A stretch of DNA of 64,000 nt from an uncultured virus (IMG/VR IMGVR_UViG_2684622643_000005) (IMGVR_UViG_2684622643_000005:1-64000), one strand, 5' to 3'. Shown: positions 24,118 to 33,632, counted from the first letter of the stretch. Notes: generated from the sequence alone by a model not told the origin. Numbers and translations: made by a program.

Positions 24118-24474
24118 TTACTGGCCGTCGGTTAGGCCGTCGGAACAGCGCAGCCGCCACTCACGGCGAGCGGTGACATCGGTCTCTGCGCTGGTGATGT
24201 TGTAGACTCGGCCATCCCAGATGACACGCCAGGTGTAGAGTTCCAACCGCTCAACGGGGAACCATCGACAATTGATCCTGGCAGTGGTCTCCGCCTGCGT
24301 AGCATCGGCAGCGATCAGCTCGCGACCTGGGCCAGTCAGAACCTCGGCGGGAAGGTCGGCGCGACCGGAGAACAGAACGGTCTCCCAGGTCGTCACCATT
24401 TCCCCCGTATCAGGGTCTTGTGTTTGTACCTGCCGCTGAAACTGAATGCGATGGCGCATACGGTAGGCCAGCAT
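24118..24474 (-). CDS. Head closure / head-tail adaptor
   Basis: RMRHRIQFQR, RVIWDGRVYNI; position. Confidence 0.88.
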   Translation of the reverse strand: MLAYRMRHRIQFQRQVQTQDPDTGEMVTTWETVLFSGRADLPAEVLTGPGRELIAADATQAETTARINCRWFPVERLELYTWRVIWDGRVYNITSAETDVTARREWRLRCSDGLTDGQ

Positions 24475-24795
24475 TCAAACCCCCAAGCCGCATCGGTACG
24501 GCATCAGCTTCACCTCGGCCGCCTTACGCAGCGTCGCGATTTCATCGGGAGCAGCCTGATAGCTGGCCTGAAGCAAAAGAAGCACTCCGATGACCACGCT
24601 AGGCGGAAGTCCCGGTTCGCTACTGACAGCCTCACTGCTCTCTTCGCAGTTGCAAAGGCCATCAAGGGACTGGCGCCACATGAACTGGCAGGCCTCGTCC
24701 TCCGCTCCATCCAGCAGCAACTGGAGCTTGGCGTCATCCCAATCGTGGATCACATCAAGAAAGGACTTTGCCGTATCAAGCGGGATCAGGCTCAT
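24475..24795 (-). CDS. Head-tail connector (HK97 gp6-like)
   Basis: LDTAKSFLDV...DDAKL, LMPYR; position. Confidence 0.88.
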   Translation of the reverse strand: MSLIPLDTAKSFLDVIHDWDDAKLQLLLDGAEDEACQFMWRQSLDGLCNCEESSEAVSSEPGLPPSVVIGVLLLLQASYQAAPDEIATLRKAAEVKLMPYRCGLGV

Positions 24796-25372
24796 TCAGC
24801 GCGTCCTCCAGCGGTCTACGCGCGAAACAGGTAAGCGCCGTTTCGCGTGTGCAATTGATGATTTCTATCCCAGGGTTCTTGCGCTTCAGGTTTTCGAACT
24901 CTACCGGCCACTCGGATATCTTCCCTGCACTACCCAGCCCTCTGGGGTGATCACCATGCCAGTGAGACATCCCGCCAGTTTTCTGCATGTCGTAGCCGAG
25001 AAGGATGATTCGCTTGGCGCCCCTGGCTATGGCCAAAGAAACTGCGCCGCCGCCTGAGTTCCTGTAGTGCTCAATGCGTGCCGTTTTGATGCCGAAGGGA
25101 TTGGCGCTGAGTGTCAGAAGCTCACCGCAGAAGTTTGCTTTAGCCTCGGCGGCGTATCTCTCCCACCAGACTTTATCCATTGCCCACAGCGCATCAGCCC
25201 AGGGAGTCAGTCGGAACGTTGTGTTCGTGCAGATGGCCGCCCTCTGCGGCGAGGAGTTCCGCCACTCTCGGACTCGTTCGCAGTCTTCTGCTGTGAGGCT
25301 GGGGCCACTTGCGAGGCAGACAGCGACTCGCCAGCCACAGGCTTTGGGATCTCTGATTCCACAATCTGGCAA
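24776..25372 (-). CDS. Sialyltransferase/Maf-like (GT29/GT42-fold) glycosyltransferase; no good start, probably expressed by frameshift
   Basis: CLASGPSL, ICTN, NSGGGAVSLA..GAKRIILLGYD, HWH, IINCT..TALTCF. Confidence 0.65.
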   Translation of the reverse strand: MPDCGIRDPKACGWRVAVCLASGPSLTAEDCERVREWRNSSPQRAAICTNTTFRLTPWADALWAMDKVWWERYAAEAKANFCGELLTLSANPFGIKTARIEHYRNSGGGAVSLAIARGAKRIILLGYDMQKTGGMSHWHGDHPRGLGSAGKISEWPVEFENLKRKNPGIEIINCTRETALTCFARRPLEDALNEPDPA

Positions 25373-25494
25373 AGTCCGCGCGCCACCAACTGGCGAGCCA
25401 GGTACTCGGATGCGAGGTATGCATCACCACCAGCCTTTCTCACACGACCGCCATCCAGGTAGGAACGAACCGGCTTGATCATTACGTCAGACAT
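25207..25494 (-). CDS. Small capsid-adjacent protein
   Basis: GAGGTG RBS; directly after the major capsid gene; basic low-complexity tail. Confidence 0.7.
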   Translation of the reverse strand: MSDVMIKPVRSYLDGGRVRKAGGDAYLASEYLARQLVARGLCQIVESEIPKPVAGESLSASQVAPASQQKTANESESGGTPRRRGRPSARTQRSD

Positions 25495-25538
25495 AATCAC
25501 CTCAAAGAAAGAGGGGCCGGGAGACCGGCCCCTTCCAG

Positions 25539-26726
25539 TCAGCTGGCGGTCAGCGAACCAGTGACAAACGCCTCAGGCCGATAGACCGCGAAGGCCAGTC
25601 GCTCTTCAGCGCGGATGGTTACCATGTTTTTCTCGAAGTCCTTGTCGTTCTCGGTGGAGACCAGAACCTCGATATCCATGCGGTCGAAGATCTGGGCGCC
25701 GAGCGAGAATGCCCCGGTCAAGAACTCGTCCTGAGTGATGGCCTGGGTTTCCACCACCGGCAGACGCCAGAGGGTCGGAGTGGTGCCGTTCTGCGGGCTG
25801 CCGATGATGTAGCGGTTCTCGGCGTCCTTGGTCAGCTCGATCAGCGCCCAGTCGATGGGGTTGAGCACGATACCGCTGGCCGGGAACTCGGCCAGTTGCG
25901 CCTGAAGGATCGCCAGGCGGATGCGGTCGATTCGCTGCTCGGCAGTCACCACTACGCCGCTCGGCGGAGCGTAGGCCTGTGCCTGCGGAATGATGCCGTG
26001 CAGATTGGCACCGGTTCCGTTTCCGTAGAGCAGTTGACCTTCTTCGACCAACATCAGGCCGTAACGAGCGCGCGCATCGATGTAGCTCTGCAAGGCCGAT
26101 GCGTCGTCCAGGATCTGGCGACTTGCCTTGAACAAGTGGGCGATGGTGCGAACCGGCGCGTTTTCCAGCTCGAAGGTCAGGTCCGAGTACGGCTTCTGGG
26201 TGCCTTCCGAAACAGGAGCGGCATTGTTGACGAAGCCGGTCTCGCGAACGTACTCGACGGAGTTCGATTCAGTGGTGCCCGGCGCAACCAGGTCGCGGAT
26301 GGTCAGTCGACGCTGCGGAGCGGCAACGACACCGGGGCGACGATCAGGAGCAACCAGGGCACCGCCAGAGCTGTCGATGGAGGTGATGGCCGAGCGCGGC
26401 ATGGATACGCGATGCGAACCGCGCAGGGAGCTGGTTACACCCTGCTCTTTCAGGCTCTCTGCGACCATTTGGCCGGCGGTCTTCGGTGCTTCCTCGCCGC
26501 CGTCACGCTTCTCGTTGGCCAGCATGGCTTGTTCTGCGGCGCTCAGCCGTGCTTGCAGTTCGCCCTGAGCGGTCAGCAGTTCGTCGACCTTGGCTCGGGT
26601 TTCCTTGTTCATCTCGCCGAAGTTGGCGATTTGGGTGTTGACCTGTTCGGCCTGGGCCTTGATCTGATCGCCGACCTGCTTGAGGCTGGTGTTCAGTTCG
26701 CCGATTTGTTTCTCGAAGTCGCTCAT
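25539..26726 (-). CDS. Major capsid protein, HK97 fold
   Basis: Coiled-coil delta domain, GGALVAP, QLLYGNG, IRAEERLA. Confidence 0.96.
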   Translation of the reverse strand: MSDFEKQIGELNTSLKQVGDQIKAQAEQVNTQIANFGEMNKETRAKVDELLTAQGELQARLSAAEQAMLANEKRDGGEEAPKTAGQMVAESLKEQGVTSSLRGSHRVSMPRSAITSIDSSGGALVAPDRRPGVVAAPQRRLTIRDLVAPGTTESNSVEYVRETGFVNNAAPVSEGTQKPYSDLTFELENAPVRTIAHLFKASRQILDDASALQSYIDARARYGLMLVEEGQLLYGNGTGANLHGIIPQAQAYAPPSGVVVTAEQRIDRIRLAILQAQLAEFPASGIVLNPIDWALIELTKDAENRYIIGSPQNGTTPTLWRLPVVETQAITQDEFLTGAFSLGAQIFDRMDIEVLVSTENDKDFEKNMVTIRAEERLAFAVYRPEAFVTGSLTAS

Positions 26727-33389: not shown

Positions 33390-33465
33390 TGGTGCCGGCA
33401 GCAGGAGTCAAACCCGCAACCCTCTGATTACAAATCAGCAGCGCTCCCTGTTGCGCCATACCGGC
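33390..33465 (-). tRNA. Phage tRNA-Thr (TGT)
   Basis: GCCGGTA...CTGA TT TGT AA TCAG...GCCGGCACCA cloverleaf; T-loop TTTGACT. Confidence 0.85.
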
Positions 33466-33469
33466 TTAT

Positions 33470-33544
33470 TGGCTGACGCGGATGGGATCGAACCATCGAC
33501 CAATCGGGTAACAGCCGACCGCTCTACCTCTGAGCTACACGTCA
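33470..33544 (-). tRNA. Phage tRNA-Asn (GTT)
   Basis: TGACGTGTAGCTCAG...GTCGG CT GTT AC CCGAT...GTTCGA...GCCA. Confidence 0.88.
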
Positions 33545-33555
33545 TTGAATCGAGT

Positions 33556-33632
<77 letters not shown>

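Follow-up and report, generated by a model that had tools for sequence, protein, structure and literature searches.

Evidence from relatives for a probable −1 frameshift between a capsid-adjacent small gene and an overlapping enzyme gene in a D3-like phage

Overlapping genes downstream of the capsid gene

The DNA analyzed was a stretch of 64,000 nucleotides (nt) from an uncultured virus (IMG/VR IMGVR_UViG_2684622643_000005), referred to below as the window. The analysis centered on two overlapping genes of its minus strand: a small gene encoding 95 amino acids (aa), which directly follows the major capsid gene, and an enzyme gene read in the −1 frame relative to it. A 901-nt query taken at the junction of the two genes matched 21 phage records, and in 19 the match covers 80% or more of the query; among the records are PP9W2 (99.9%), PMG1 (98.8%) and D3 (88%); by these matches the region is that of a D3-like (Detrevirus) temperate phage or prophage of Pseudomonas aeruginosa. 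D3 is a long-studied model temperate phage of this host, and its relatives are common prophages of clinical isolates. An earlier note on this DNA had proposed that a −1 slip within the overlap joins the ~50-aa N-terminal domain (N-domain) of the small protein to the enzyme. That proposal was upheld by a conserved slip site and by relatives in which the two parts are fused in frame. We consider it likely, from comparison of sequences, that recoding makes one unit of the small gene and the enzyme gene, with a 95-aa product read straight through and a 239-aa product made by slippage at C_CCA_AAG.

The small open reading frame (ORF) runs from ATG 25494 to a stop at 25207, with GAGG 6–7 nt ahead of the ATG. 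The enzyme frame, which opens after a stop upstream of 25372, ends with the stop at 24776, and its only ATG, GTG or TTG before the motif ASGPSL is the TTG at 25372–25370, which is not accompanied by a conserved Shine-Dalgarno sequence; the weak start described in the earlier note was thereby confirmed. The 166-nt overlap was also found as described, extending from this TTG to 25207 with the enzyme frame −1 to the small ORF. Within it the 0 frame reads GAG ATC CCA AAG CCT, which places CCCAAAG (25348–25342) in the X_XXY_YYZ phase, and translation through a −1 slip gave the expected sequence ..PK-ACGWRVAVCLASGPSL. The predicted trans-frame product has 50 + 189 = 239 aa; natural fusions have 230–249 aa. 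In an AlphaFold (AF2) model of the small protein, the slip site (Pro50-Lys51) falls in the linker, at the boundary of the folded N-domain and the disordered tail. Passages of the review by Atkins et al. describe C_CCA_AAG as highly shift-prone in Escherichia coli and Z_ZZN as the minimal −1 motif (PMC5009743).

Features of the region are collected in Table 1. The family of the small gene, phrog_7993, carries a function-less label. In public records the enzyme gene is annotated inconsistently, with 459 nt in D3, 597 nt in PMG1 (from the GTG equivalent of 25372), 405 nt in U7 and D14C (from the ATG equivalent of 25180) and nothing at this place in phi1, and a frameshift mark was absent from all five of these annotated D3-like records. 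Product names in the D14C record are off by one gene. As far as open-licence papers in PubMed Central (PMC) and bioRxiv show, a search outside which the original D3 and PMG1 genome papers lie, the frameshift is unreported; a term search of the PRFect paper returned no mention of it. In relatives, the terminator-like hairpin that separates the capsid and small genes keeps its stem, and its 4-nt loop is flipped (TCTC versus GAGA). This hairpin probably lowers expression of all downstream genes relative to the capsid protein.

Table 1. Features of the overlap and its surroundings in the window
Feature	Position	Strand	Basis or remark
Major capsid protein gene (HK97 type)	25539..26726	−	Pfam Phage_capsid E 5e-63, phrog_10; same label in D3 and PMG1
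Terminator-like GC hairpin and T run	25512..25533	−	9 pairs in scan; rho-independent terminator in PMG1 annotation
Small 0-frame gene, orf6.5-like, 95 aa	25207..25494	−	phrog_7993 over full length, E 1e-62
N-domain (residues 1–45), DUF7210-like	25360..25494	−	Common to both predicted products
TTG, rival start candidate in enzyme frame	25370..25372	−	Sole conventional start before ASGPSL
Slippery heptamer C_CCA_AAG (candidate)	25342..25348	−	Phased in small-gene frame
−1-frame enzyme segment after slip, 189 codons and stop	24776..25345	−	phrog_4603, E 1e-71
Predicted hairpin 1–2 nt past heptamer	25291..25340	−	Candidate stimulator, without statistical support
In-frame ATG, start in some records (134-aa form without ASGPSL)	25178..25180	−	Clusters P0004–P0006
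Head-tail adaptor Ad1 gene	24475..24795	−	phrog_40; D3 and PMG1 annotations; 20-nt overlap with end of enzyme gene
Head closure protein gene	24118..24474	−	After Ad1 in gene order

Frame, starts and slip position among relatives

The −1 arrangement, the missing starts, the conserved slip position, the fusions and the stand-alone forms were shown by comparison of homologous loci. Homologues of the enzyme numbered 911 in a near-length search and 3,642 representatives at E ≤ 0.001. Loci were fetched for 80 viral sequences and for 80 sequences from one genome per species, in each scan the best 80 by enzyme similarity, which for the viral sequences means the best of more than 554 hits; the window and six phage-record loci (L001–L006) were added, and the set was sorted with a profile of the small-gene N-domain. 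Five loci without a recognisable motif (L004, L067, L091, L100 and L154) were dropped. One of them, the PACT201 record (L004), differs from every other D3-like phage by numerous single-base insertions across the region, in which hardly any genes are annotated; these insertions look like uncorrected sequencing error.

Among the 162 motif-bearing loci, the enzyme frame was −1 to the N-domain ORF in 117 and +1 in one, and 44 gave no N-domain match. The 117 loci were reduced to 94 distinct junctions; L093, with a misplaced motif, was dropped to leave 93 for slip-site counts, which come from phages and prophages and reach down to ~45% identity. The single +1 locus (L115, on a Neopusillimonas aromaticivorans chromosome) encodes an enzyme sister to that of L052, and an additional indel, gene decay or an error in sequencing may account for its frame. 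In five loci from Lysobacteraceae, Omnitrophota and Paceibacterota bins (L114, L130, L132, L134 and L135), the enzyme frame has no start and no N-domain was detected ahead of it; the domain there may have diverged, which would make these loci additional cases of frameshifting.

No ATG, GTG or TTG was present in the enzyme frame between the upstream stop and ASGPSL in 58 of the 94 distinct −1 junctions. The other 36 comprised 27 junctions of the D3 group and nine whose start falls within the N-domain coding part, 69 nt or more ahead of the motif, so that outside the D3 group 58 of 67 junctions have no start at all. Phased slip sites were sought in a permissible stretch of at most 30 nt. C_CCN, that is, a 0-frame Pro codon after C, was found in 90 of 93 junctions and X_XXY_YYZ in 65 of 93; every junction had one or the other (93/93). 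The slip site stood exactly 15 nt ahead of a conserved Trp codon in 84 of the 93. In the rest of the N-domain part of the small ORFs, which served as control, C preceded a Pro codon in 33 of 142 cases, and 33% of third positions were C. Nine different C-ending codons were found ahead of the Pro codon among 66 sequences, so the encoded residue varies and the C does not.

Among the heptamers were C_CCA_AAG, C_CCU_UCG, C_CCU_UCC, C_CCU_UUG, A_AAC_CCU, A_AAC_CCC, U_UUC_CCU and C_CCC_CCG, and the loci without C_CCN carried A_AAG_GGC (L116) or G_GGA_AAA (L117, L151). Conservation of the site, raised in the earlier note, was observed, and wherever the heptamer differs another Z_ZZN or X_XXY_YYZ occupies the same aligned position. 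An enzyme-frame TGA directly abuts CCC in L094 and L095, and in L105, L110, L118 and L046 the CCC codon is preceded by a stop at a distance of one to three codons (in L046 a TGA, two codons upstream of the heptamer). With stops at these positions, the enzyme frame can hardly be entered in any other way.

Within the D3 group, the heptamer and the ~40 nt surrounding it do not vary, and third positions vary upstream. This invariance is as expected for double-coding DNA and is not decisive. C_CCA_AAG was unchanged in 34 distinct junctions, seven of which lie outside the D3 group and have other flanking codons. The nearest outgroups (L045–L047, 82–86% protein identity) keep it between different codons (CGC, ACC and CAC before; ACA and CAA after). 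The TTG position is occupied by CTG in L045 and L047, and in L046 the start position is cut off by a downstream in-frame TGA. GAGG is located 3 nt before the GTG in D3 and was lost by synonymous changes in the window and many relatives. The Leu codons at the 25372 position in the D3 group (CTT, CTG and TTG) all preserve a TTG or GTG start.

The in-frame fusions sought in relatives were found: the N-domain and the enzyme lie in one frame in 10–11 proteins detected by hidden Markov model (HMM) and in eight more read by eye from alignment A3. At the DNA level, L167 contains such a fusion, an ORF of 249 aa flanked by the capsid gene and the adaptor gene; a DNA scan with P0027 for other in-frame fusions found none. 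The linker from the N-domain to ASGPSL measures 13–18 residues in 67 of 73 predicted −1 products and 11–18 residues in 10 of the 11 HMM-found fusions, with 46 in P0144 (HMM E 0.002). Stand-alone enzymes that have their own ATG 8–20 codons before the motif and no small gene were found in L054, L104, L137, L142, L144, L147, L149 and others. In a quick maximum-likelihood tree of 164 enzyme domains, 98 of 101 −1 rows were placed in one clade of 123 rows, with in-frame and stand-alone forms nested inside. The tree fits a long-held −1 state with occasional resolution. The occurrence of frameshifted, fused and separate forms together is the classic comparative signature of programmed frameshifting.

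The two predicted products

In the AF2 model of the 95-aa protein, residues 1–45 are folded, with a predicted local distance difference test (pLDDT) score of ~90, and residues 46–95 are disordered (~50). The modelled N-domain consists of four short strands, a helix and a strand. A family HMM of this domain matched the window small protein at E 6e-23 and links all homologues; Pfam gave no match to the window small protein, even at E ≤ 1. At E < 1, DUF7210 (PF23843) matched 10 of the 27 small-ORF homologues; its cut-off of 27 was reached by L062 (28.6) and by the fusion P0178 (27.4) only. An Atlas search with the N-domain gave leads to clusters of DUF7210 and DUF7302, none above 0.85, and no mention of DUF7210 was found in open-licence PMC papers and bioRxiv. 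Structural comparison returned GINS B-domains (Z 6.7), bL9 N-domains (~5), the lambda gpFI C-domain (2lsm, Z 5.1, root-mean-square deviation 1.6 over 44 residues) and YqbF (2hjq, Z 4.4), all within the range that the tool treats as noise and calls uninformative. A profile search of solved structures with the N-domain gave one irrelevant match (E 1.2) and no sequence similarity to gpFI.

The 0-frame tail is rich in Ser, Ala and Pro and has a basic end, RRRGRPSA here and KKPGRKKK in AT-richer relatives. Its middle, SASPAAQASPQTTAK, is dictated by the overlap with CIASGPSLT; the basic end overlies a variable enzyme loop. The 0 frame is open for at least 23 codons beyond the motif in 89 of 91 −1 junctions, and the last 15 residues of the 0-frame product contain on average 5.0 Lys and Arg versus 1.0 Asp and Glu. 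In loci without the N-domain the 0 frame stops after 5 codons in 21 of 44, and in the in-frame fusion L167 it stops after 4. The open 0 frame and basic tail of the −1 loci argue for two functional products, and the AT-hook-like character of the tail suggests a DNA- or RNA-binding role for the shorter one.

In the enzyme alignment, the motifs ASGPSL and HWHGDH are invariant. Residues A21, S22, G23, P24, S25 and L26 are invariant, and the strand before them is conserved, over 35 homologues, among them some that start at an upstream ATG of their own; in the model this segment forms the first strand and loop of a Rossmann-like fold. PHROG 4603, matched by the window enzyme frame, is labelled alpha-2,3-sialyltransferase. 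The window 198-aa enzyme frame matched 0 Pfam families at E ≤ 0.01, and relatives scored 17–44 bits against PF01973 (cut-off 34.6), with only P0124 (41.5) and P0226 (43.6) above the cut-off. For structural searches, the natural fusion P0025, 53% identical to the window enzyme, was modelled at pLDDT 96. Foldseek matched this model to the Maf flagellin glycosyltransferase 5mu5 (E 8e-5, template modelling (TM) score 0.55), to the sialyltransferase CstII (1ro7/1ro8, E 2e-4) and to the archaeal MptE pyrophosphokinase (HPPK) 8sd5 (E 3e-4); thiamine pyrophosphokinases were also found. Over the matches 5mu5, 1ro7/1ro8, 8sd5 and 3lm8, E values ranged from 8e-5 to 1e-3 and TM scores from 0.35 to 0.55.

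Judged from this model, the −1-frame domain is predicted to be an MptE/Maf/CstII-like, nucleotide-dependent enzyme. The glycosyltransferase label of the earlier note agrees with the Maf and CstII matches at the level of fold, and pyrophosphokinase chemistry fits the fold equally; the label is reasonable but unproven. Some relatives carry additional domains. In P0127, P0149 and P0178 (~520 aa), an extra C-terminal domain of ~290 aa without a Pfam match is fused to the enzyme, and in L051 and L053 the gene downstream of the enzyme carries the same domain. The enzyme is fused to a methyltransferase in P0245 and to a TOD1/MUCI70 glycosyltransferase-like domain in P0260. These fused and adjacent domains hint at a multi-enzyme modification module beside the capsid gene.

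Proposed mechanism, alternatives and known systems

In the proposed mechanism, ribosomes would start at ATG 25494, and most would stay in the 0 frame and make the 95-aa protein. A fraction would slip back one base at C_CCA_AAG, right after the N-domain, with tRNA-Pro on CCA and tRNA-Lys on AAG re-pairing to CCC and AAA. Reading would then resume as GCC UGU GGC UGG and yield the 239-aa N-domain-enzyme protein. In relatives with C_CCN only, the slip would be made by the P-site tRNA-Pro alone. Both the slippage and its efficiency are inferred. For the long product, a possible if doubtful role is that of a modifying enzyme targeted to the virion or procapsid: the gpFI-like N-domain would dock on the capsid or packaging machinery, and a Maf/CstII-like transferase of nonulosonic acid or another glycosyl group would modify capsid proteins or the Ser/Thr/Pro-rich 0-frame tail. 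The enzyme chemistry and the targeting in this role are likewise conjectural. If true, this would be programmed virion glycosylation in Gram-negative phages, with the frameshift setting the ratio of enzyme to scaffold.

The 64,037-base viral contig contains seven tRNA genes, none for Lys or Pro. Two tRNA-His(GTG) genes lie near the contig ends (412–487 and 62701–62776 (−)), the second beside tRNA-Leu and tRNA-Arg, and a Thr-Asn-Gly cluster lies mid-window (33390–33632 (−)). These genes may be connected with the integration site or be phage-borne tRNAs.

Several points weigh against slippage. Support for it in this phage comes entirely from sequence comparison, and the junction counts share ancestry and are not phylogenetically independent. 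Shuffled sequences are expected to give 8.76 copies of CCCAAAG, and the window has 9; at this chance frequency the presence of the heptamer is by itself insignificant and the chance test is uninformative. A tetranucleotide only is carried by 28 of the 93 junctions, and a tetranucleotide slip site is usually weak. A stimulatory element finds no support. The earlier note had named potential stems downstream of the heptamer, and these were not supported: a hairpin is present (−26.1 kcal/mol), but its z is −0.76, 34 of 200 shuffled sequences folded equally well, and family-wide covariation was not seen. Folds of 72 nt and 201 nt around the site, both at z −0.76, were not better than shuffled. Across 66 ungapped junctions RNAalifold detected no stem common to the family, and in the non-D3 subset just one of 7 bp (GCCGCUG/CAGCGGC); the spacer between heptamer and hairpin is only 1–3 nt; and inspection of the aligned junctions by eye gave no consistent Shine-Dalgarno-like 5′ stimulator. 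Finally, a TTG or GTG 24 nt upstream of the heptamer is kept in 27 of 27 distinct D3-group junctions, so independent initiation may replace or accompany slippage.

Initiation at that codon is the chief alternative: recoding would be absent, and a separate 198-aa enzyme would start at TTG 25372 (GTG in D3 and PMG1), inside the small gene. Besides the retention of the codon in the D3 group, where CTC, a common Leu codon that would destroy the start, was not seen, it is favored by the PMG1 annotation and by the stand-alone enzymes, which begin at a similar distance from the motif. It is nevertheless unlikely, because a Shine-Dalgarno sequence is not conserved at the TTG, the GAGG of D3 being gone from the window; because the nearest outgroups lose the codon, or are cut off from it, with the heptamer retained; because most junctions beyond the D3 group offer no start; and because, read in the enzyme frame, the residues from the TTG to the slip site show no conservation. 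A start at ATG 25180, giving a 134-aa enzyme with the ASGPSL region untranslated in that frame, would agree with the U7 and D14C annotations and the 134-aa clusters (P0004–P0006), and this ATG is the first in the frame. Such a start is very improbable, since ASGPSL and the preceding strand are conserved even in homologues with an upstream ATG and, according to the model, the truncated protein would lose the first strand and loop of its fold.

Equally improbable is a change of frame at the RNA level by transcriptional slippage or editing, a decaying pseudogene, or an assembly error. Nothing specific speaks for these readings, apart from runs of 4–6 C in a few relatives such as L077. Most sites have CCC only and no long homopolymer, the arrangement recurs in all 93 distinct junctions, and the enzyme domain is conserved. 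Contigs of four RNA-library runs from four studies (X1, X5, X8 and X10) span 24700–25700, each in a single 17-kb contig, without an indel, though such contigs may be DNA-derived and drop rare variants, and show neither transcription nor the absence of slippage.

If the conserved recoding is true, a new gene class would be added to the short list of phage programmed frameshifts, and the annotation of hundreds of prophages would be corrected. The unit would have two products, a basic-tailed small protein and an enzyme with the same targeting domain, and its place, in phages of Beta- and Gammaproteobacteria alike, is between the genes for capsid and connector. The proline C_CCN with variable A-site extensions would provide a natural series for the study of minimal bacterial −1 sites.

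The N-domain and the enzyme were each compared with known proteins. Maf, CstII (family GT42) and MptE-like proteins of PF01973 match the enzyme in fold, by way of the natural fusion relative; the enzyme here is much smaller (~175 aa) and 12–15% identical. As to the N-domain, the packaging chaperone gpFI is encoded directly after the capsid gene in lambda and binds the capsid through its C-domain, and yqbF follows the capsid gene in a Bacillus subtilis prophage. The small gene here is like that of gpFI in lying directly downstream of the major capsid gene; the domain order differs. GINS B-domains and bL9 score as well as or better than gpFI and YqbF against the modelled N-domain, and the weak likeness to the gpFI C-domain, with the position of the gene, is a hint and an attractive lead for the capsid tether that the earlier note proposed. 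In a passage of PMC13595911, gpFI is described as bridging the capsid and the terminase-DNA complex.

E. coli copA uses C_CCA_AAG; passages on copA confirm its frameshifting without giving the site. The heptamer here is identical to the E. coli C_CCA_AAG sites; the host here is Pseudomonas. For −1 frameshifts in phage structural modules, two sources list lambda G/GT, T7 gene 10A/10B and the major head protein of Lactobacillus phage A2 (PMC5009743, PMC10885494). Like these three, the unit described here has a phased slip site and, from a single start, two predicted products with a common N-terminal part, lies in a late structural operon, is conserved, and has fused or separate relatives. Unlike in those systems, the common part is a DUF7210-like domain of 50 aa, the trans-frame part is an enzyme-fold domain rather than an extension of the capsid or a chaperone, what stays constant throughout the family is the Pro-codon tetranucleotide C_CCN, and no stimulator was identified. 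The kind of mechanism is already known, and the gene pair and its family-wide proline C_CCN site are new members of it.

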